Virus record (IMG/VR): IMGVR_UViG_2681813236_000014
Span: 1 to 11,010 of that record
Source: a virus
Taxonomy: Duplodnaviria; Heunggongvirae; Uroviricota; Caudoviricetes
DNA: 11,010 bases
Reading direction: 5' to 3' (one strand)
A program made the position numbers and the translations under genes. The notes under the pieces were generated by a model. That model searched no databases. It was not told the origin of the DNA and saw nothing but the letters and a program-made list of their open reading frames with translations. Shown here in pieces: positions 723 to 11,010 of this stretch (position 1 is the stretch's first letter; every line of letters starts with the position of its first letter).

Positions 723-1943
723 GTGGGAAAAGCACTAAACAAACTGAGCGATTCGACGTTAAAAAAATTGGCGGCTGTCCAGGCAGAAAAAGAGCGTTTT
801 TACTCCGACGGGGGCGGGCTGGAGATTAAACACTCAAAGGGCGGCAAATTAACCTGGTATTTCCGGTACCGAACGGGAGGCCGTGAGGTTGCCGCAGAGC
901 GGTTAAAGCTGGGGGCTTACCCTGAATTGTCGCTGAAAGCCGCAAGGGAAAAACGCACACTGTGCCGGGCATGGCTGGCTGAGGGTAAAAACCCCCGTTA
1001 TGAGTTGTGCGCCACAGTACAGGAAGCACTAAAACCCGTTACGGTGAAGGAAGCGATTAACTACTGGCTGGAGGAATACGCGAAGGATAACCGCAAAGAT
1101 TACATAAAGCTGGTGCAGCGTATGGATAAGCACATCATTTGCCATATTGGGGCAATTCCCCTTGATAAGTGTGATACAAGGCAGTGGATCGCATGTTTTG
1201 ACCGCGTACGAAAAAAAGCACCAGTAGCAGCGGGCCATGTCATGCAGACATGCAAACAGGCGCTAAAGTTTTGCCGCAGGCGGCGCTACGCGTTTAGCAA
1301 CGCCCTGGACGATTTGATCGTTACTGATGTGGGTAAGAGAGCAGAAATCCGCGAGAGAGTGCACAGCAACAGCGAACTAAAAGAAATTCTACGCGCTATT
1401 GATGGTGATGTGTTCGCTCCCTATTACAGTGCGTTAATGCGCTTGTTAATTGTGTTCGGGTGCAGAACGGCAGAGATCAGACTTTCAGAGATCAAAGAAT
1501 GGGACCTGAAAGAAATGTTGTGGACAGTGCCAAAAGAGCACAGCAAAACGAAGGTAACAATATTCCGACCTATTCCTGATGGTATTTTGCCGTTCATTCA
1601 GAAGCTGGTGGAGCAAAACGCACACACTGGGTTATTACTCGGCGAACTGAAAAAAGATACCACGGTGGCGCAATATGGACGAAATGCGCATAAGCGGCTT
1701 AAGCAGGAACACTGGACGCTGCATGATTTCCGACACACGTTTACAACTATGCTGAATGATTTAGGTGTCGATCCGCATATCGTGGAGCACATCACAGCGC
1801 ATCAGATGCCAGGTCAGCAAAAAACCTATAACCATTCACGCTATTTGCAGGCGAAACGGGACGCACTGAATCTATGGGTTGAGCGTCTTGATATGATTGC
1901 AGGATATAATGAAAATATTGTGATATTGAGAGGGATACAATGA
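723..1943 (+). CDS. int: Tyrosine recombinase, P4-type integrase (406 aa, GTG start)
   Basis: N-terminal arm-binding pattern (DGGGLEIKHSKGGKLTWYFRYR); catalytic-region motifs GCRTAEI, HDFRHT and a C-terminal Tyr (KTYNHS); RBS AAGAGGA 7 nt upstream; adjacent to the insertion junction. Confidence 0.9.
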   Translation: MGKALNKLSDSTLKKLAAVQAEKERFYSDGGGLEIKHSKGGKLTWYFRYRTGGREVAAERLKLGAYPELSLKAAREKRTLCRAWLAEGKNPRYELCATVQEALKPVTVKEAINYWLEEYAKDNRKDYIKLVQRMDKHIICHIGAIPLDKCDTRQWIACFDRVRKKAPVAAGHVMQTCKQALKFCRRRRYAFSNALDDLIVTDVGKRAEIRERVHSNSELKEILRAIDGDVFAPYYSALMRLLIVFGCRTAEIRLSEIKEWDLKEMLWTVPKEHSKTKVTIFRPIPDGILPFIQKLVEQNAHTGLLLGELKKDTTVAQYGRNAHKRLKQEHWTLHDFRHTFTTMLNDLGVDPHIVEHITAHQMPGQQKTYNHSRYLQAKRDALNLWVERLDMIAGYNENIVILRGIQ

Positions 1944-2794
1944 CGAAAAAAGTAAATAGTAAAAAAGATTTACCAAAGTCATTTGATTTAGGCAAATATG
2001 ATTGCCTAGAAAACTTGTCGGATAAAGATCTATTTCGCCAATTATATTGGCGACAAGATGATTTAACAATGAAACATTCTGAGATGCCTGAATATGGATT
2101 TATGTTTGGTGCTGAATACCCGTTGCATAATAATTACGGGGATCCATTTGGAGAGCTGAAAGAAGACGATTGGTTTTGTGATAAACAAAAAGAATATGAC
2201 CATAAAGTGCAACCGAAGTTAATTGAGCTAAGTTATGATGATGGAATTAAACCTGTAACAAGATTTGATATATCAATGATTAATAAACTGACTGCGGAAA
2301 GAGGATATTGGAAGGATAAACCAATCATCATAGATAATGAGATGGTTGGAAGTTTAATATCAGAAGATAATGGGATGTTTTGGGCTGTGATGCGTGAACC
2401 AGTGAATCTCCTTTCTGATACATTAGATAATATGCTTGTTTCTGTTGACTTACTACATAACAGAGATGATGAGTTGATTGAAGCGTTTACAAAACTATTA
2501 CCAAAATGGCGTAGTGAACTTTCAATTGTTGAGCCAGACAAACCAATTGCAGGAAGTTGGGAGAGCATACGACGTAAAATTATTGATTATAAGATAATCC
2601 CATTAATTGACTTATTATCTTGGGAGTTGTCTACAGATAGAAAAATTTCATTAGGGGTGCTTGCCGTATCTTTGTATCCTGATGGTGAAAAGGACACCTT
2701 TGCTATTGCTCAGACTGTAAAACCCTTCTTAGAAAAAATAATGCGCAGCGATTCTTTAGAAAAAATAAGAAAAATTTTATCTAATGAAAATTAA
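1940..2794 (+). CDS. Hypothetical protein, AT-rich cargo gene (284 aa), function unknown
   Basis: Long ORF with start overlapping the int stop (ATGA), RBS AGAGGGA. Markedly lower GC than flanking int and alpA. No motif I can assign. Confidence 0.7.
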   Translation: MTKKVNSKKDLPKSFDLGKYDCLENLSDKDLFRQLYWRQDDLTMKHSEMPEYGFMFGAEYPLHNNYGDPFGELKEDDWFCDKQKEYDHKVQPKLIELSYDDGIKPVTRFDISMINKLTAERGYWKDKPIIIDNEMVGSLISEDNGMFWAVMREPVNLLSDTLDNMLVSVDLLHNRDDELIEAFTKLLPKWRSELSIVEPDKPIAGSWESIRRKIIDYKIIPLIDLLSWELSTDRKISLGVLAVSLYPDGEKDTFAIAQTVKPFLEKIMRSDSLEKIRKILSNEN

Positions 2795-2897
2795 TCATGG
2801 AGAACGATAAATTAGAATAAAGTTTATTTTTCCAATATTGCACCAACTGCTATGGTAAATAAGATGCCCTTGTTCGGTTACGTTCGAGGGTGTTTTT

Positions 2898-3122
2898 ATG
2901 AATCAAAATACACAATTTCAATCACTAACAGATCGCGTAATTCGTGAGGATGAATGTCGTAAGTTAACAGGCGTCAGCCGTACTACACGCTACGAACTGG
3001 AGAAGAAAGGGGGCTTTCCGTCTCGCCGTAATCTTGGGGGGCGTTCTGTAGGCTGGTTGCTTTCCGAAGTTATGGACTGGGTGCAAAGCCGTGACCGCGT
3101 TAATTCAGGTAAGGCAGCGTAA
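2898..3122 (+). CDS. alpA: AlpA-family transcriptional regulator / excisionase-like (74 aa)
   Basis: HTH-containing small protein (LTGVSRTTRYELEKKGGFPSRRNLGGRSVGWLLSEVMDWVQS) typical of AlpA family; RBS GAGGG upstream; standard position after int in P4-like and PICI elements. Confidence 0.8.
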   Translation: MNQNTQFQSLTDRVIREDECRKLTGVSRTTRYELEKKGGFPSRRNLGGRSVGWLLSEVMDWVQSRDRVNSGKAA

Positions 3123-3140
3123 AGGGGAGCATATGACATA

Positions 3141-3168
3141 TAAAACAAAGGCGACCGGGGGCGGTCGC
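3141..3168 (-). terminator. Putative intrinsic terminator for the leftward regulator operon
   Basis: Perfect 8-bp GC-rich stem GGCGACCG/CGGTCGCC (3149-3156, 3161-3168) with 4-nt loop. On the minus strand it is followed by a U-rich run (complement of aaaacaaa, 3141-3148); no T-run on the plus strand. Confidence 0.5.
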
Positions 3169-3236
3169 CAATGGATACACACTAAACTTGAACGCATCGC
3201 CAACAATGCCACATTTGCGGCTGGTGGGCAATGTGA

Positions 3237-3416
3237 TCAGTCAGATTTGGTTCGTTCCAAGGTTTGCAACGAGAGCTTTTTCCTGTGCTCTTTAAGGAAT
3301 TTCTCAAGAGCAAACGAACAAGGTGCGAATCTTTCTGATTCATGTTCATGCGCTATATTTTTGCGTCGTCTCTTACGAGTTGGTGATGGTGTTTTGGTTG
3401 ATTCTGTGTCGCTCAT
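3237..3416 (-). CDS. Possible small basic protein (59 aa), below the ORF-track cutoff
   Basis: Manual translation of the minus strand gives MSDTESTKTPSPTRKRRRKNIAHEHESERFAPCSFALEKFLKEHRKKLSLQTLERTKSD with an AGGA RBS 6 nt upstream; sits between the RHH gene and the minus-strand terminator. Hand-derived, so coordinates could be off by a few nt. Confidence 0.3.
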   Translation of the reverse strand: MSDTESTKTPSPTRKRRRKNIAHEHESERFAPCSFALEKFLKEHRKKLSLQTLERTKSD

Positions 3417-3473
3417 GGTGCTGTCCTGTAAAGCAATGCGCCTGCGTTCCTCAAACTATGGCGCTGATAGTGG

Positions 3474-3779
3474 CTATTCCTGCTCTTTGACCTTGCGTCG
3501 CTGGAGTTCTTCACGCGCGACGGTGACGAGTTGCCCGATCTCCTCGGCGGCTTTGACTCCGATTTTTTCCACCTGCGCTAGGGCATCGAGCGAAGAAACC
3601 AGGAGGTTTTCTCCGCTTCCTTCTGCCTGGCGGCGGGCGATTTCACCGCGCATGGCGGTTACTATGAATCCGGCGTTGCTTTCACCGTCCAGTTTTACGG
3701 ATTCCATGCCTTCAATAACATCATGCGGGATCCGAGCTGTCAGTGATTGTGATTTTGCGTTTTTTGAACCTGTAGCCAT
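3474..3779 (-). CDS. Putative ribbon-helix-helix (CopG/Arc-like) DNA-binding regulator, 101 aa; candidate island repressor
   Basis: Strong RBS GAGAGGA 6 nt before the ATG at 3779 (the ORF-track start at 3794 is a TTG without RBS). N-terminus SLTARIPHDVIEGMESV fits a beta-strand/helix RHH pattern. Divergent from the pri operon across an operator-rich region. Confidence 0.6.
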   Translation of the reverse strand: MATGSKNAKSQSLTARIPHDVIEGMESVKLDGESNAGFIVTAMRGEIARRQAEGSGENLLVSSLDALAQVEKIGVKAAEEIGQLVTVAREELQRRKVKEQE

Positions 3780-3800
3780 CTGTAATCCTCTCAATGAAAG

Positions 3801-3877
3801 TGTAAGACAATATACACATAAAAAGTCTTACATAAAAGCATTGACATGTAAGCCACCTATAAATAAAGTTACTTACA
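3801..3877. promoter_or_regulatory. Divergent promoter/operator region: two TGTAAG-N19/20-CTTACA inverted-repeat operators plus rightward promoter (-35 TTGACA 3841-3846, -10 TAAAGT 3864-3869)
   Basis: Seen directly: TGTAAG at 3801-3806 and 3847-3852; CTTACA at 3827-3832 and 3872-3877. The second pair overlaps the promoter elements. Confidence 0.5.
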
Positions 3878-3975
3878 CCTTGTTAATGCAAGGTGCAGAA
3901 ACGACGAAACCCCGCACTGTAGGAGCAGTAACGGGGCTTCTAACCACCAACGATAGCAAGATTATCGAGGCAGCT

Positions 3976-4179
3976 ATGAGAAATCATACCATACACCCGC
4001 AAGGGCGGGACTCGTACAACCTGAATAAATACATCTGGCGTTTTATCGCCCTGAGCACCGCACAACCGCGCGTGATTCACATCGTGGCCACCAGCGAACA
4101 GGAAGCACGCCAGCAATCCCCGGCTGGCTGCGTGATGGTATTCGCCGCCCGTATTCGTCAGGGGGTGTGCCATGCCTGA
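3976..4179 (+). CDS. Small protein (67 aa), first gene of the rightward operon; possibly Icd-like cell-division-inhibitor family (weak recollection)
   Basis: First in-frame ATG after the promoter, RBS GAGG; MRNHTIHPQGRDSYNLNKYIWRFIALSTAQPRVIHIVATSEQEARQQSPAGCVMVFAARIRQGVCHA. The rest of the 362-aa ORF-track frame upstream is antisense to the RHH gene and not credible. Confidence 0.5.
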   Translation: MRNHTIHPQGRDSYNLNKYIWRFIALSTAQPRVIHIVATSEQEARQQSPAGCVMVFAARIRQGVCHA

Positions 4180-4492
4180 TATGTCAAATTACCAGTACCT
4201 GATTAATCCGCATTTTAACTGTGAGCATGATATTGCTAAAAAGATTTATTCCGCTGCGGATGGGGCTACTGACAATATATCAATGGCTGTTGCGTCAATT
4301 GGTAGCCTGATGTGGCATGCGTCAGAAAATGAGGACTATGACGAAAAGGCCATGCGCATTGATATGGGGAATATCGGTTTGTTACTGGCAATGCTTGGAC
4401 ATTTTGATATTTCGTTACGGTGCACCATTGAAAATGCCACAGATGCATTAAATGCTATAAAGAAAGCGAATACTGATTCAAATCGGGGATAA
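4172..4492 (+). CDS. Hypothetical protein (106 aa)
   Basis: Start overlaps the upstream stop (ATGCCTGA), RBS AGGGGG; in operon with the primase; no recognisable motif. Confidence 0.55.
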   Translation: MPDMSNYQYLINPHFNCEHDIAKKIYSAADGATDNISMAVASIGSLMWHASENEDYDEKAMRIDMGNIGLLLAMLGHFDISLRCTIENATDALNAIKKANTDSNRG

Positions 4493-4498
4493 ATAATC

Positions 4499-4798
4499 AT
4501 GAGAACGTATTTATCTGGCTTGACTGCCAGCGGTTATGCACACCCCCAAATTATCCCCGGCGCTATTTATCTGGATAAGAACGGTAACAGAGTAACGGTA
4601 AAAGAACTGATGTTTGACCGTGTGTATTTTATCCGTGATGGCTATTCATTTCTTAGTTCGCTGAACGTGGAGATCTTTATTAGCAGATTCAGGCGGGAAA
4701 TCCCGCTTTCCAGAAATAACCATGTGTCATGTATGGATGTTGATAAAAAACTACAGGAACTAAAAAACATGATTGCCGCGTGGAGAGAGCAGAAATGA
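4499..4798 (+). CDS. Hypothetical protein (99 aa)
   Basis: Stop overlaps the primase ATG at 4795 (ATGA), suggesting translational coupling; no recognisable motif. Confidence 0.55.
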   Translation: MRTYLSGLTASGYAHPQIIPGAIYLDKNGNRVTVKELMFDRVYFIRDGYSFLSSLNVEIFISRFRREIPLSRNNHVSCMDVDKKLQELKNMIAAWREQK

Positions 4799-6612
4799 AA
4801 AAAGCGCCAAATTTAAAACACCAGCCGCGTGACAAAATGACGGAAGTCATCATTTTTGCGGGTAGTGATGCGTGGGCACATGCGAAACAGTGGCAGGAAC
4901 AGGACGGGCGACTGGCTGGCGATAACGTGCCACCTGTCTGGCTTGGAGAGCAACAACTTGCCGAACTGGACAACCTGCAAATCGTACCGGACGGACGCTA
5001 TCGCGTGCGTCTCTATCAGGCGGGGTTATTGCGGCCGGGGCTTGTTAATACCATCGGGCAGAAACTGGCAGTGGCAGGTGTCAGGGATGCTGATTATTAC
5101 CCTGAAGGAATGCACAGCCAGAAACGGGAGAACTGGCGCGAATATCTGGAACGTGAACGGGCAGAGCAGGCGGAAAAGAAAAAGGTAGTTGAACTGCCTG
5201 TAAAGAAAAAAGAGCGGGTAAAAGACGATAACGCGTCATCACTGGCGCTTAACCAGATGGGAGCAAGTCAACGCGGCGAAGTTCTCCTGGCACATTATGG
5301 CGGTGAACTGGCGATTCATGCTGACTCTGACACTGTTCACCATTACAACGGCGTTGTATGGGAGCCAGTACAGGATAAAGAATTACAGCGAGCTATGGCA
5401 CAGATTTTCATTGATGCGGAGATCAGCTATTCGCAGAACGCCATTAAATCGGCGGTCGATACCATGAAGTTAAGTTTGCCTGTAATGGGGAATACAGCCC
5501 GTAACCTGATTGGATTCAGTAACGGGGTATTTGATACCAGAACAGGTAATTTTCGGGAGCATAACAAAAACGACTGGTTGTTAATTGCCAGTGAATTACC
5601 TTTCAGCCCACCAGCAGAGGGGGAAACGCTGGCAACACATGCGCCGAATTTCTGGAAGTGGTTACGCCGTTCGGTGGCTGAGAATGACCGCAAGGCGGAT
5701 CGCGTACTGGCTGCATTATTCATGGTGCTGGCGAACCGGTACGACTGGCAGTTATTCATTGAGGTAACAGGTCCAGGGGGAAGTGGTAAAAGCGTGATGG
5801 CGGAGATTTGCACCATGCTGGCGGGTAAGGCCAACACAGTATCGGCAAGCATGAAGGCGCTGGAAGATGCAAGGGAACGCGCGTTAGTGGTTGGCTTTTC
5901 GCTGATTATCATGCCGGATATGACCCGCTACGCTGGTGATGGGGCAGGGATTAAGGCTATTACAGGCGGTGACAAGGTGGCAATTGACCCGAAACACAAA
6001 GCCCCCTACTCAACGCGTATTCCGGCAGTAGTGCTGGCGGTTAACAATAACGCCATGTCATTCAGTGACCGCAGCGGGGGGATCTCACGTCGTCGGGTGA
6101 TATTCAATTTTTCGGAAGTTGTACCGGAGAACGAACGTGATCCAATGCTGGCGGAAAAAATAGAAGGTGAGCTGGCGGTAGTGATTCGCCATCTGCTTAC
6201 ACGGTTTGCTGACCAGGACGAAGCCAGACGCCTGTTATATGAGCAGCAGAAATCTGAAGAAGCACTGGCGATAAAGCGAGAGGGGGATTCGCTGGTGGAC
6301 TTCTGCGGCTATCTCATGGCGTCGGTAATGTGTGATGGCCTGTTAGTGGGTAATGCTGAAATTGTGCCATTCAGCCCACGCAGGTATCTCTATCATGCCT
6401 ATCTGGCTTATATGAGGGCACATGGGTTTGGTAAACCTGTAACACTGACGCGCTTCGGTAAAGATATGCCGGGGGCAATGGCGGAATATGGCAGGGAGTA
6501 TATGAAACGGAAAACGAAGCACGGTTTGCGTTCAAACGTGACACTGACGGAGGAATCAGAAGACTGGATGCCATCATGTGTATCGGTCACTAATGACGAT
6601 AGCAAAAATTAA
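4795..6612 (+). CDS. P4-family primase/helicase (replication initiator, pri-rep), ~605 aa
   Basis: Walker A GPGGSGKS (5769-5792) in the C-terminal helicase-like domain; large N-terminal domain; iteron origin immediately downstream. Start chosen at the ATG at 4795 (RBS GGAGAG, ATGA overlap) rather than the GTG at 4780. Confidence 0.88.
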   Translation: MKKAPNLKHQPRDKMTEVIIFAGSDAWAHAKQWQEQDGRLAGDNVPPVWLGEQQLAELDNLQIVPDGRYRVRLYQAGLLRPGLVNTIGQKLAVAGVRDADYYPEGMHSQKRENWREYLERERAEQAEKKKVVELPVKKKERVKDDNASSLALNQMGASQRGEVLLAHYGGELAIHADSDTVHHYNGVVWEPVQDKELQRAMAQIFIDAEISYSQNAIKSAVDTMKLSLPVMGNTARNLIGFSNGVFDTRTGNFREHNKNDWLLIASELPFSPPAEGETLATHAPNFWKWLRRSVAENDRKADRVLAALFMVLANRYDWQLFIEVTGPGGSGKSVMAEICTMLAGKANTVSASMKALEDARERALVVGFSLIIMPDMTRYAGDGAGIKAITGGDKVAIDPKHKAPYSTRIPAVVLAVNNNAMSFSDRSGGISRRRVIFNFSEVVPENERDPMLAEKIEGELAVVIRHLLTRFADQDEARRLLYEQQKSEEALAIKREGDSLVDFCGYLMASVMCDGLLVGNAEIVPFSPRRYLYHAYLAYMRAHGFGKPVTLTRFGKDMPGAMAEYGREYMKRKTKHGLRSNVTLTEESEDWMPSCVSVTNDDSKN

Positions 6613-6620
6613 ACTTATGG

Positions 6621-6850
6621 AATAACTGTTCACCACTGTTCACCCCGTCATAAATGTCTTTTATATCATTATATTATAGGGTGAACAGTTATTTATGAAC
6701 TGTTCACCAAACTATTCACTGTTCACCTTTTTGATTGTTTATTGAGCTGCAAGGGTGAACAGTGGTGAACAGTTGGTGAATAGTTTTTGTGAAACTGTTC
6801 ACCCCTTAACATTATGAATTGAAAGAGAAAATAGCAAAAGGTGAACACGT
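6621..6850. repeat. Iteron cluster / putative origin of replication
   Basis: About 10 copies of the 10-mer ACTGTTCACC in both orientations: direct at 6625, 6635, 6699, 6718, 6794; inverted GGTGAACAGT at 6680, 6754, 6764, plus degenerate copies at 6775 and 6840. An AT-rich stretch lies between them (6645-6679). Confidence 0.75.
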
Positions 6851-7003: not shown

Positions 7004-7717
7004 TTAGTTAGTTTTGAAAAATTTATTGAATAACTCTAAGCTTTCAGGATGTATATATTGAGTAGGGTAACTGATACGTTGTGAGCGTCCAATTTTTATT
7101 GTGTTTTTTTTCGTCTTCCCAAAAAATAGATTCTTCCATGTTAAAATGTTTCCGTGATTATATTTATTGTCTTTTAATCGCTTTTCCAAATAACCATCTG
7201 TGATTTTATATTTATGTGGCGGTACATTCCTTGAGTGCTCAATTTTCCGTAATTCTACTTCTAGCATATCTATTAGCTCACCTTTAGGGGTTTTGAGTTG
7301 ATAATTTAGTAAGCGGCAGTATCTGCGTAATTCCCATACAGTTCTATCTAATGTAATAATTTCAAACCCATTAGTATACATGACTTTTTGGAAGTATCTA
7401 TTTGGTCCTTGGTCATTTAGATACTCTATGAAATATATGCTTTTATCACTCAGATCTAGTTTAATATATGGAATATCATTAATTTTTTTAATTCCTGCAA
7501 CAAGATCATGTCCAATATTTTTAACAGGGATTCTATTAAAAATAAGAATGCATTTTATATATTTTTCAATTGCTTGTTGAGACATCCATAAAAATTGGAA
7601 AGGAAGATTGTTTTTAAAGCAAATACGAGCAGTTAGATAATCTTGATCAGCCATGTCTCTGAAAGATCTTTTAGCCGCATTATTCAGAAAAATTTTTTGA
7701 GTATCAGTAAGTTCCAT
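7004..7717 (-). CDS. AT-rich cargo protein with HEPN-like N-terminal domain (237 aa); candidate RNase-type defense/abortive-infection effector
   Basis: RBS AGGAAG; N-terminal helices with HEPN-like pattern (AAKRSFRDMADQDYLTARI...QQAIEKYIKCIL...NIGHDLVAGIKKI); roughly 30% GC by eye versus ~50% in flanks; opposite strand to surrounding island genes. Confidence 0.7.
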   Translation of the reverse strand: MELTDTQKIFLNNAAKRSFRDMADQDYLTARICFKNNLPFQFLWMSQQAIEKYIKCILIFNRIPVKNIGHDLVAGIKKINDIPYIKLDLSDKSIYFIEYLNDQGPNRYFQKVMYTNGFEIITLDRTVWELRRYCRLLNYQLKTPKGELIDMLEVELRKIEHSRNVPPHKYKITDGYLEKRLKDNKYNHGNILTWKNLFFGKTKKNTIKIGRSQRISYPTQYIHPESLELFNKFFKTN

Positions 7718-7863: not shown

Positions 7864-8073
7864 GTGAGTTGTATTAATGACCTGAACACAGGCGATATCA
7901 GAGGCGGTTCCGTTCATCTGGATGCGCAGACCGTTATGCGCCTTAAGCAGTACAGGATCGACCATATAAATCATCATCCTGACCAACCATTACCAGGTGT
8001 GGCGCAGATTGTCAGGCATGCCGTAAACGCCTGGCTTAATCAGAGTGGTTTTGCATCGGAGAGTGAGCAATGA
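7864..8073 (+). CDS. Hypothetical small protein (69 aa, GTG start) preceding the capsid gene
   Basis: RBS AGAGGAAG 5 nt before the GTG; stop overlaps the next ATG (ATGA); function not assignable. Confidence 0.5.
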   Translation: MSCINDLNTGDIRGGSVHLDAQTVMRLKQYRIDHINHHPDQPLPGVAQIVRHAVNAWLNQSGFASESEQ

Positions 8074-9983
8074 ATCACTGGTACACCATTAAGGCGGCGG
8101 ATGTTCGCGGAGCGGCGGATATATCTATCTATGAGGAGATTGGCGGCTTCGGTGTTACTGCAAAGCAGTTCGCGGAAGACCTGAAAGCCCTTGGCGATGT
8201 TTCACATATCAATCTGAGGATCCATTCACCAGGTGGTGATGTGTTTGAAGGCATCGCCATCTATAACCTGCTACGGAATCATCCGGCAGACATTACGGTT
8301 TATATCGATGGTGTTGCGGCTTCAATGGCTTCGGTTGTCGCAATGGCTGGCGATCGTGTTGTTATGCCGGAGAACGCCATGATGATGATCCATAAGCCGT
8401 GGGGTATCTCTGGCGGAAATGCTGGCGATATGCGTGATTATGCTGATTTGCTGGATAAGGTGGAAACCGTGTTAATCCCTGCTTATGCCAGAAAAACGGG
8501 CAAATCAGCACAGGAAATTACCGCCATGCTGGAGGATGAAACCTGGATGGATGGGAAAGAATGCCTTAAGCACGGTTTTGCTGATGAATTGTTGCCATCC
8601 GTCAGAGCAATGGCGCGAATTGAATCGAAACGCACAGGAGATTTTTTACATATGCCGGAAACCATTAAAGGAATGATTACACCGCCACAGGGAGCGGCAA
8701 ATATTGCTGGTAATGAACAGAAGCGCATCAATGGAATAAGTGAAGTGTTTAGCTTGTTCGGCAGTCGTTACGACGGGATCAAAATGGCGTGTCTGGAAGA
8801 TGCATCATGTACACCGGAAATGGCCCGTGAAAAGCTGTTGAACGAGCTGGGGCGCGAGTCCACGCCATCCAATAAAAATACCTCGCCTCATATCTATGCC
8901 GGAAACGGAAACATAACAGGTGATGCAATTCGTCAGGGGCTTTATTCCCGTCTTGGGTATGAACGCCCTGAACGAGGCAACCCTTACGCGATGATGAGCC
9001 TTTTTGAAATGGCCCAGGCATCACTGGTTGATCGTGGTATCACTGTGAGCGGTTTTATTAATCGCTCGCAGGTTGTTAATGCGGCTTTTACACACAGCAG
9101 CAGCGATTTTTCTCATATTCTGGCTGGTGGCGCTGAGAAATCAGTACTGAAAGGCTGGCAGGACAGCGGCGAAACGTTCCAGAAATGGACGCGTACCGGT
9201 TCGCTTTCAAACTTTCATGAAGCAAAGCGCGTTGGTCTGAATGGTTTTTCAAAGCTGGATAAAGTACCGGAAGGCGCGGAATATAAATACATCACCACTA
9301 GCGATAAAGGTGTACCTATTGCGCTGGCCACGTACGGGAATATTTTTTCCGTTACCCGTCAGGCCATTATCAACGATGACCTGACCCAGTTAACTACAAT
9401 CCCCATGGCGATGGGACGCGCAGCTGCCAGAACAGTTGGCAATCTGGTTTATCTCCTGTTAACCAGCAACGGCAAGTTTACGGATGGTAAAGCGTTATTC
9501 CATGCCGATCATAAAAATCTTATTGCGAAGGATATGGACATGGAGGGGCTTAACGAAGCCCGTAAGCTGATGCGCCTCCAGGAAGACGCTAACGGCGATT
9601 CGCTGAATATTACCCCCGCATTTGTCCTGGTCCCCGCCGCGCTGGAGTCTGCCGCACATCGCGCCATTCTGTCATCGTCATCACTCTTTCCGGTTGATGG
9701 CGTGGGCACTATCAATCAGAACCCCGGCATCATTAACGTGGTGAAAGATATGGCGGAGGTAATCGTTGAGCCACGTCTTGATAAAGCCAATAACAAGGAG
9801 TGGTATGTGGCAGCGGCGAAGGGTATGGACACGATAGAGGTCGCTTATCTTGATGGTATTGATACGCCATATCTTGAGGAGCAGGAGGGCTTTACTGTTG
9901 ATGGCGTCGCCTGGAAGGTGCGCATAGATGCAGGTGTCGCGGCCCTCGACTATCGCGGATTACTGAAATCGAGTGGAGCATGA
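8070..9983 (+). CDS. Prohead protease (ClpP/S14-like) fused to major capsid protein (637 aa)
   Basis: N-terminus has ClpP-like motifs (IHSPGGDV, GVAASMASVVAMAGD, MMIHKPWG). C-terminal ~400 aa resemble phage major head proteins (DGKALFHADHKN recalls Mu gpT-like DGKPFFAADHP). Strong RBS; intrinsic terminator immediately downstream. Confidence 0.85.
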   Translation: MNHWYTIKAADVRGAADISIYEEIGGFGVTAKQFAEDLKALGDVSHINLRIHSPGGDVFEGIAIYNLLRNHPADITVYIDGVAASMASVVAMAGDRVVMPENAMMMIHKPWGISGGNAGDMRDYADLLDKVETVLIPAYARKTGKSAQEITAMLEDETWMDGKECLKHGFADELLPSVRAMARIESKRTGDFLHMPETIKGMITPPQGAANIAGNEQKRINGISEVFSLFGSRYDGIKMACLEDASCTPEMAREKLLNELGRESTPSNKNTSPHIYAGNGNITGDAIRQGLYSRLGYERPERGNPYAMMSLFEMAQASLVDRGITVSGFINRSQVVNAAFTHSSSDFSHILAGGAEKSVLKGWQDSGETFQKWTRTGSLSNFHEAKRVGLNGFSKLDKVPEGAEYKYITTSDKGVPIALATYGNIFSVTRQAIINDDLTQLTTIPMAMGRAAARTVGNLVYLLLTSNGKFTDGKALFHADHKNLIAKDMDMEGLNEARKLMRLQEDANGDSLNITPAFVLVPAALESAAHRAILSSSSLFPVDGVGTINQNPGIINVVKDMAEVIVEPRLDKANNKEWYVAAAKGMDTIEVAYLDGIDTPYLEEQEGFTVDGVAWKVRIDAGVAALDYRGLLKSSGA

Positions 9984-9989
9984 CAACAA

Positions 9990-10013
9990 GGGCGGCGATA
10001 GCCGCCTTTTTTT
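9990..10013 (+). terminator. Rho-independent terminator after the capsid gene
   Basis: Stem GGCGGC/GCCGCC (9991-9996, 10001-10006), loop GATA, followed by T7 (10007-10013). Confidence 0.7.
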
Positions 10014-10061
10014 ACGGGTCCTCCCGGTGGGGTGGTCTGCCACGGGGCGGGAGCGGCGCGG
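10014..10061. other. Lambda-like cos site (cosQ/cosN-homologous segment); candidate 12-nt cohesive end GGGCGGGAGCGG at 10045-10056
   Basis: ACGGGTCCTCCCGGTG...ACGGGGCGGGAGCGGCGCGG aligns with the recalled lambda junction ACGGGTCCTTTCCGGTGATCCGACAGGTTACG|GGGCGGCGACCT|CGCGGG; the terS start lies ~196 bp downstream, as Nu1 does in lambda. Confidence 0.6.
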
Positions 10062-10240
10062 AAAAAGGCTAGTTTTTGCATTTTCATTCGTCATCATCAT
10101 CTTCATATTGTATTGAATTTTAAGCATTTTTATTTTTGGTATGTTAATTTTACTTGTTTTATGCTCAACATATAGCGCATTTTTTGACCTCTTCTGAAAG
10201 TTGTTCGCAAGATGCATGTTTAAAACATTCTGGAGCGGGT

Positions 10241-10726
10241 ATGGATCGAGAACTGAAAAATCTGATGCTGAACATTAATCAACTGGCGGCGATAGCGGGA
10301 ATATGTCGTCAGACTGCGGCGGCAAGGCTGAAAAACATCCAGCCAGCCGGAGGGCATGACAAGCTGAAACTCTATCGGGTGACTGACATTCTGACCTGTT
10401 TTCTTGATCTTCCCGTTCCGGCATCACTGGAAGAAATGGAGCCACATGACCGTAAGGCCTGGTATCAGTCCGAACGTGAACGCCTCAAGTTCGAACAGGA
10501 AACGGCGCAACTCATACCCGCCGATGATGTGCGAAAAGAGATGGCTATATGGGGGGAAATCGTAAGCGAGGAACTGGCAAAACTCCCCAATATTCTGGCA
10601 CGTGATGCCGGGCTTAAACCGATGGCAGTAAACAGAGTGCAGTCAATTATTGACGATTTGTGTAATCAGATTATCAGCCGGATGGTAAAAAATGACGTAG
10701 TGAATGAGGTCGCAAAACAGGCATGA
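10241..10726 (+). CDS. Small terminase subunit, Nu1-like (161 aa)
   Basis: RBS GGAG 7 nt before the ATG at 10241 (the ORF-track start at 10154 lies inside the cos region and lacks an RBS). N-terminal HTH (LNINQLAAIAGICRQTAAARLKN) and overall layout resemble lambda Nu1; immediately downstream of cos. Confidence 0.72.
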   Translation: MDRELKNLMLNINQLAAIAGICRQTAAARLKNIQPAGGHDKLKLYRVTDILTCFLDLPVPASLEEMEPHDRKAWYQSERERLKFEQETAQLIPADDVRKEMAIWGEIVSEELAKLPNILARDAGLKPMAVNRVQSIIDDLCNQIISRMVKNDVVNEVAKQA

Positions 10727-11010
10727 TAATGACCGAATCTGAAATACTGCGATTAATCCGCTGTGCTGGTGGAATCAGCCAGTTGGCTGACGAACAGGCC
10801 GCGCAGCCGGATACAGTCACCGCTGAAAATTACGCGCGTGTGGTGGCTGAGGTGATGCGCCGTGACGGTATTGAGCTTAACGGCGTGGATATGCGCAACA
10901 TACGAACCAGAGTTCTTGAGTTGCTGGCATACCGTCGCCGTTCTCAACAACGGAGGGAGAGCGCGAAAAATACTTACCAGTGGAGGAAGCCGGAGCACTT
11001 ACGGCGGTAA
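10723..11010 (+). CDS. Hypothetical protein (95 aa) downstream of terS
   Basis: Start overlaps the terS stop (ATGA); stop at the window end; no recognisable motif. Confidence 0.45.
   Translation: MIMTESEILRLIRCAGGISQLADEQAAQPDTVTAENYARVVAEVMRRDGIELNGVDMRNIRTRVLELLAYRRRSQQRRESAKNTYQWRKPEHLRR

Follow-up and report, generated by a model that had tools for sequence, protein, structure and literature searches.

A predicted lambda-type cos site in an Escherichia coli phage satellite lies in an exchangeable cassette with the DNA-binding half of a small-terminase homologue

E. coli satellites of the cos type mobilise genes for virulence and for defence, and it is the packaging signal that determines by which phages a satellite can be moved. 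The cos1 site and the Rpp system of EcCICFT073 were reportedly treated by Fillol-Salom in 2018 and 2019 and by Murialdo and Feiss in 2022. In the EcCICFT073 family, a lambda-like cosQ and cosN at the same position as in the locus studied here has been shown experimentally to be functional (PMC6092414, PMC6739421; review PMC9026076). Of 29 reference PICIs, 21 carry capsid genes (PMC10111431), and Rpp proteins are without the TerS C-terminus (PMC9026076). Because the cos of the family is functional after the capsid gene and capsid genes are common, the order of capsid gene, cos and small DNA-binding protein is the normal EcCICFT073-type layout. For an E. coli PICI, the possession of a lambda-like cos is a known and expected feature. 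EcCICFT073 was located in CFT073 for the comparisons made below.

The window is the whole stretch of DNA that was analysed (11,010 nucleotides). It is identified by its gene content as a phage satellite of about 10.8 kb that belongs to the EcCICFT073/Gram-negative PICI family. It has an int-alpA-primase/ori backbone with unidirectional organisation, a size within 10–20 kb and a probable att site of its own in the form of 70-nt repeats. The element is integrated between rcnR and thiM of E. coli and occurs with 99.3% identity in several complete genomes. The capsid-cos-terS junction was found in 190 of 5426 complete E. coli genomes, and sister satellites of the same architecture occupy other integration sites. 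No TerL is encoded in the window. The features around the cos are as follows:

620–689, + strand: left copy of a 70-nt direct repeat, probable att region (repeat search in the full chromosomal locus, L001)
723–6612, + strand: satellite backbone (Pfam and PHROG matches, RefSeq annotation, synteny with EcCICFT073)
723–1943, + strand: tyrosine integrase
1940–2794, + strand: DUF6387 protein
2898–3122, + strand: AlpA-like regulator
within 723–6612, + strand: Icd-like protein
4499–4798, + strand: DUF4222
4780–6612, + strand: D5-type primase
8070–9983, + strand: ClpP-like prohead protease/major capsid fusion gene (PF00574 and PF25209)
9989–10013, + strand: intrinsic-terminator-like hairpin and T-run ending the capsid gene (sequence, fold, comparison with EcCICFT073)
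10241–10726, + strand: hybrid small-terminase homologue, DUF1441/phrog_141, 161 aa (profile matches, alignments)
10729–11010, + strand: conserved gene of about 93 aa (93–95), phrog_1561, which follows Rpp or TerS in EcCICFT073-type satellites

The right copy of the 70-nt repeat lies about 450 nt past the window end (L001 17464–17533), with 94% identity and a spacing of 10,844 bp, and the two copies probably mark the element ends. A 14-nt exact repeat lies farther out, with a spacing of 11,076 bp. Four element copies, about 43 kb, are roughly equal to the 42–45-kb genomes of the related phages. At 6615–6709, directly after the primase gene, the 21-nt sequence TTATGGAATAACTGTTCACCA is repeated in variant form and in the same orientation at a distance of 74 nt, and the two copies are probably iterons of the satellite replication origin. 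The slot between the primase/ori and the capsid gene is variable. It contains a HEPN-domain protein here (7004–7717, − strand) and an SSB with an 81-aa gene in the sister satellites L027–L030, and it may be a hotspot for defence or accessory cargo. The ClpP/capsid fusion is 58% identical to the equivalent protein of vB_EcoS-569R4, and the 93-aa protein is 72% identical to its EcCICFT073 homologue and 74% identical to that of satellite L022. The terminator has its stem at 9989–9996 and 10001–10008, and its T-run abuts cosQ, as in EcCICFT073 cos1.

An earlier sequence-only reading had placed a lambda-homologous cos between the capsid gene and terS. This placement holds, with the ClpP/capsid fusion (8070–9983) followed by the cos and then by the small-terminase homologue (10241–10726). 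The sequence and coordinates given for the site are exact (ACGGGTCCTCCCGGTG at 10014–10029, a 15-nt spacer at 10030–10044 and GGGCGGGAGCGGCGCGG at 10045–10061), and the lambda ends given for comparison agree with NC_001416 (right end ...TTTACGGGTCCTTTCCGGTGATCCGACAGGTTACG, left end GGGCGGCGACCTCGCGGG). The cos parts and the cassette that contains them are predicted as follows:

10016–10022, + strand: cosQ GGGTCCT (identity to lambda 48473–48479)
10043–10058, + strand: cosN (homology to lambda cosN)
10045–10056, + strand: predicted 12-nt 5' cohesive end GGGCGGGAGCGG (phage record ends, homology)
10057–10240, + strand: cosB-equivalent region (alignment of 11 cos regions)
10088–10101, + strand: candidate R3-like element TCGTCATCATCATC, bp 44–57 from the predicted end
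10138–10147, inverted: candidate R2-like element GGTATGTTAA, bp 94–103 from the predicted end
10164–10175, + strand: candidate R1-like element CTCAACATATAG, bp 120–131 from the predicted end
10014 to about 10460–10520, + strand: packaging-specificity cassette of cosQ-cosN-cosB and the 5' part of terS (sliding identity, alignment)

The cosQ heptamer is an exact match to lambda and is kept in all the related phage and satellite cos regions that were aligned. The flanking blocks had been described as near-identical to those of lambda; TTTACGGGTCC, CCGGTG, ACG and CGCGG are kept, and in the T/C run the left block is one base shorter (TCC versus TTTCC). The spacer is 15 nt in both, and the distance from cosQ to the predicted nick is 22 nt here versus 23 nt in lambda. 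The core 12-mer GGGCGGGAGCGG is identical to the lambda core GGGCGGCGACCT at 7 of 12 positions. In the ungapped comparison it differs at positions 7, 8, 9, 11 and 12, that is, at five positions and not at the four or so counted before. The distance to terS is lambda-like as proposed, since the ATG at 10241 is bp 197 from 10045 and lambda Nu1 starts at bp 191. The two-fold symmetry of cosN (CG-GGGCGGGAGCGG-CG, 10043–10058), counted from the sequence, covers 8 of 16 positions versus 10 of 16 in lambda, and the lower symmetry is a point against the cos reading.

A single match to the cosN pattern ACGGGGCGGNNNCNNCGCGG is present in the window, and none of 200 shuffles contained it. When the alignments to lambda and to lambdoid cos regions were computed, the local alignment of the window with lambda had a score of 16, which was equalled by 6 of 2000 dinucleotide shuffles (p ~0.003), so that the significance of the direct resemblance to lambda alone is modest. 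The alignment to lambdoid phages is strong, the best cos match having E = 4e-31 and 95% identity over 86 nt. The case for homology to lambdoid cos regions rests far more on these intermediate phages than on lambda itself. By homology, the 48 bases at 10014–10061 are recognised as a real lambda-type cos site, at which nicking and packaging would take place. The nicks are predicted at 10044/10045 on the top strand and 10056/10057 on the bottom strand, from homology and from the start points of deposited phage records. The core is a changed version of the 12-mer of lambda, which agrees with the lambdoid cosN with an altered overhang that had been suggested.

Other candidates for cos pieces were dismissed. 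The sequence GGGCGGCGA at 9990–9998 equals the first 9 nt of the lambda overhang; it is the 5' arm of the hairpin that terminates the capsid gene, and its position is 55 nt upstream of the core of the real cosN. The window would contain about 0.08 such 9-mers by chance alone, and the sequence, lying in a terminator stem without cosQ or CG flanks, was assigned to chance. The sequence ACGGGCCATTTCCGGTG at 8812–8828 (− strand, antisense in the capsid gene) has 2 mismatches to the lambda cosQ-flank 17-mer and is accompanied by neither cosN nor GGGTCCT, and was also taken as chance. A second cos, as in EcCICFT073, was rejected because the cosN pattern occurs only once in the window. In the single-strand fold of 9989–10061 (z = −2.6), CGGGUCCUCCCGG of the cosQ-side block is paired with CCGGGGCGGGAGCGGCGCG of the cosN core, and this pairing is probably incidental to a G+C-rich, partly symmetric site. 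The Rfam search of the region gave no match near the gathering score.

A BLAST search against 50,697 phage records found the region in mEp460, vB_EcoS-569R4, phi458, PhiR47_1, cdtI, Tritos, Stx-converting phages and Fels-1. Across the whole of 10014–10260 the identity was 77–81%, and within cosQ-cosN and early cosB it reached values of up to 95%. The nearest relatives of the cos are in the mEp460/569R4/phi458/cdtI group of lambdoid phages and not in lambda. The 12-mer GGGCGGGAGCGG is identical in mEp460 and prophage L024, and the 12-mer of 569R4, phi458, cdtI and Tritos is GGGCGGGAGCGT, with one base different. The GenBank records of cdtI and Tritos open with GGGCGGGAGCGT at the base homologous to 10045, and the record of Hafnia phage yong2 closes with a 12-mer directly before CGCGG. 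The ends of these three records fit the predicted 12-nt overhang at 10045–10056. The record of L005 (LR595868.1, mEp460_4F5) opens 5 nt before the predicted nick and misses 2 nt of the 12-mer (GGGCGGGAG--CGCGG), which may be an assembly artefact at cohesive ends. The gene order in the related phages is lysis genes, cos, DUF1441 terS, gpA-family terL, W, portal and ClpP/capsid fusion. In prophages with a 97–100% identical cos, TerL consists of PF05876 GpA_ATPase and PF20454 GpA_nuclease. The proposal of a cos-type terminase is consistent with these relatives, as phages and prophages with the same or a near-identical cos encode a gpA-family TerL that would act on such a site.

The cos is part of an exchangeable cassette with the TerS DNA-binding half and not a stand-alone copy. 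The cassette is about 450 bp long and takes in the first ~75–95 terS codons. In the sliding-identity analysis, the stretch from 10014 to about 10460 is 97–100% identical to prophages L024/L026, and the identity to L024 outside this stretch is 43–67%. The comparison of satellite L027 with the window gave the reciprocal pattern. The left edge of the cassette falls on the cosQ block's first base, and the BLAST matches to phages and to hundreds of prophages start at 10014/10015. The flanks of the cassette are satellite-specific. The cosB is 93–100% identical to that of L024/L026, and these prophages refuted the idea of a satellite cosB unlike every phage cosB, as in Rpp systems.

In the alignment of TerS homologues, the N-terminal and C-terminal halves assort independently. 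The N-terminal half (residues 1 to ~95) occurs in at least 3 types, which are W (the window), R (569R4/mEp460/phi458) and X (Stx2 phages). Of the C-terminal half there are 2 types, the phage type with an acidic tail (...EAGADDEEELQQEE) and the satellite type without it (...SRMVKNDVVNEVAKQA). The W half is combined with the phage C-half in the full prophages L024–L026. The satellite C-half is combined with the R half in L027–L029 and with the X half in L030, all of them satellites that share the architecture of the window and are inserted elsewhere in the chromosome. The type of the DNA from cosN to terS always equals the type of the TerS N-half, in satellites and phages alike (3 types). Since the cassette also encodes the TerS DNA-binding half, the site and its reader move together. 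In the alignment of 11 cos regions, three cosB segments follow the W, R or X type of the TerS DNA-binding half, and the neighbouring segments are constant. From this pattern, the three segments are candidate TerS-binding elements R3, R2 and R1, in an arrangement similar to the R3-R2(inverted)-R1 layout of lambda. The IHF consensus WATCAANNNNTTR was searched in cosB and gave no match.

Prophages of the W type are rare, with 7 records at ≥99% identity, and those of the R type are very common. Because of this rarity, the cosB of a W-type satellite is, in most hosts, probably unread by the own TerS of resident helpers. The satellite TerS C-half is 97–100% conserved between satellites with different cassettes, which suggests selection. 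The sister satellite L022 (E. coli 08-00022, adjoining tRNA-Pro, cos at 9262) has the order primase, capsid fusion, cos and 93-aa gene, without terS, and its cos, cosB included, is nearly identical to that of Stx2-converting phages. The lack of terS in L022 implies that EcCICFT073-type satellites use both a borrowed cos only and a cos with their own TerS.

The TerS of the window matches its profiles over the full length (PF07278, 1.3e-35; phrog_141, 6.7e-57) and is 67% identical to the TerS of 569R4. Residues 1 to ~95 are phage-type, and residues ~96–161 are satellite-specific. It ends with ...KNDVVNEVAKQA versus ...EAGADDEEELQQEE in phages, and the acidic tail of all aligned phage members is missing. 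Because this tail is absent, the recruitment of TerL by the satellite TerS is uncertain. Only fragments came back when the C-terminal 67 aa were searched in the large database. In tblastn of the 50,697 phage records, no hit to these 67 residues exceeded 58% identity, and the last ~11 residues never aligned. The related-locus search with TerS found 5 loci. The AF2 model (pLDDT 78) has a winged-helix-like N-terminus (H-E-H-H-E-E-H), long helices and a disordered tail. Foldseek of this model gave weak matches to MerR-type wHTH proteins and to 6hn7_B (E 0.25, probability 0.93), a chain of the RppC-TerS(1-98) complex whose entry belongs to the Rpp paper. The sequence search of the PDB with TerS, RppC included, gave no match, and BLASTP against RppA (c1503) showed no similarity. 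The hybrid TerS lies in the Rpp slot of EcCICFT073, between the cos and the conserved 93-aa gene.

Taken together, 10014–10240 is very probably the cos (cosQ, cosN and cosB) of an EcCICFT073-type satellite that is packaged via a helper terminase. In the proposed mechanism, a lambdoid helper would induce excision and replication of the satellite, and a DUF1441-type small terminase would position the gpA-family TerL of the helper at cosB. TerL would then nick the top strand of cosN at 10044/45 and the bottom strand at 10056/57, 12 bp away, and leave the 5' overhang GGGCGGGAGCGG. Packaging would proceed rightward through terS and stop at the next usable cos, with cosQ assisting. In the preferred reading, the hybrid TerS would be the packaging-specificity subunit of the satellite itself in the Rpp slot, and would couple the satellite cosB to the helper TerL, directly or in mixed oligomers with the helper TerS. 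As a tentative extension, the hybrid TerS and its matching cos would form an undescribed hijacking module that replaces Rpp in EcCICFT073-type satellites. Swaps of the cassette (W, R, X) would change the cosB that is used, and the constant C-half would rewire the terminase assembly in favour of the satellite, for example through a different engagement of the helper TerL or through poisoning of the helper's TerS oligomers. This module may work together with small capsids made from the protease-capsid fusion of the satellite.

The hybrid TerS could also be an Rpp-like poison or redirector, which forms mixed oligomers with the helper TerS via the shared central region and, lacking the TerL-binding tail, blocks helper packaging, while the helper TerS is still needed to bring TerL and the use of the cos is unchanged. 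This is a possibility on the unlikely side. Its position between the cos and the 93-aa gene is the same slot as that of rppA, its acidic tail is lost as in the Rpp proteins without a TerS C-terminus (PMC9026076), and its C-half is satellite-specific and absent above 58% identity from the 50,697 phage records. However, the sequence is unlike RppA or any PDB chain, RppC included, and the cosB of Rpp-type PICIs is unlike that of any helper, whereas the cosB of the window is that of real prophages (93–100%). The equivalence to Rpp is one of position only.

A role of the site as a passively copied phage cos, like that of SaPIbov5, is more doubtful; it would be read wholly by the helper TerS and TerL, and the satellite terS would be dispensable or serve interference only. 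Such a state is suggested by L022, in which the capsid gene, a Stx2-phage-type cos and the 93-aa gene are found with no terS at all, and by the R-type satellites, which share their cosB with the very common R-type prophages. In the window, however, the terS ORF is intact, and the conservation of the satellite TerS half across cassettes (97–100%) suggests selection. Prophages of the W type, which could read this cosB, are also rare. That the site is what remains, without function, of a decayed prophage, or a G+C-rich hairpin or terminator that arose by chance, is highly improbable. The stable fold (z = −2.6), the position after a terminator and a similarity to lambda that alone reaches p ~0.003 speak for it; against it stand the 95% identity to phage cos regions, the complete and intact PICI architecture in 190 genomes, the homology edge exactly at cosQ and the zero Rfam family matches.

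The window extends the PICI repertoire by a predicted cohesive-end variant of the mEp460/cdtI type. Of more use is the linkage of site and reader, in which cosQ-cosN-cosB and the TerS DNA-binding half are exchanged as one unit among satellites and prophages. The agreement of cosB type with TerS type yields candidate TerS-binding elements for DUF1441-type terminases, and the satellite-specific TerS C-half in the Rpp slot suggests a second packaging-hijack route in Gram-negative PICIs. In the open-access literature that was searched, neither the linked cos/TerS-DNA-binding cassette nor a satellite TerS C-half replacing Rpp was found described. The searches of that literature for the overhang 12-mer and for DUF1441 returned nothing relevant, and mEp460 appeared only in unrelated genome reports.

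Among the known systems, the SaPIbov5-type Staphylococcus satellites resemble the window in having a helper-type cos and a helper capsid homologue (Ccm analogue), but their sequence is unrelated and SaPIbov5 is without a TerS homologue. The lambda cos shares with the window the exact cosQ, the ACG and CGCGG flanks, the 15-nt spacer, the 12-bp core and a terS about 190 bp downstream. In contrast, 5 of 12 core bases differ, cosB has no detectable similarity, and the TerS of lambda is Phage_Nu1 versus DUF1441 in the window. The phages mEp460, 569R4, phi458, cdtI and Tritos have a 95–100% identical cosQ-cosN and a cos about 195 bp upstream of a DUF1441 terS. Unlike in the window, the cos of the mEp460/cdtI group follows the lysis genes, terL comes after terS, cosB and the TerS DNA-binding half are mostly of the R type, and TerS has the acidic C-terminal tail.

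EcCICFT073 shares with the window the backbone of int, alpA, YlcI/YnfO, Icd-like, DUF4222 and primase genes, followed by a capsid module, a T-run, cosQ-cosN (cos1), a small DNA-binding protein (rppA, c1503) and the 93-aa gene. It differs in having the exact 12-mer of lambda, GGGCGGCGACCT, whereas the window has the mEp460-type GGGCGGGAGCGG. Its capsid module is of the lambda E/D type and that of the window is a ClpP/capsid fusion, and its cosB is unlike that of any phage whereas the cosB of the window is that of real prophages (93–100%). Finally, Rpp starts from bp ~102 in EcCICFT073, and in the window the hybrid DUF1441 TerS starts from bp 197.
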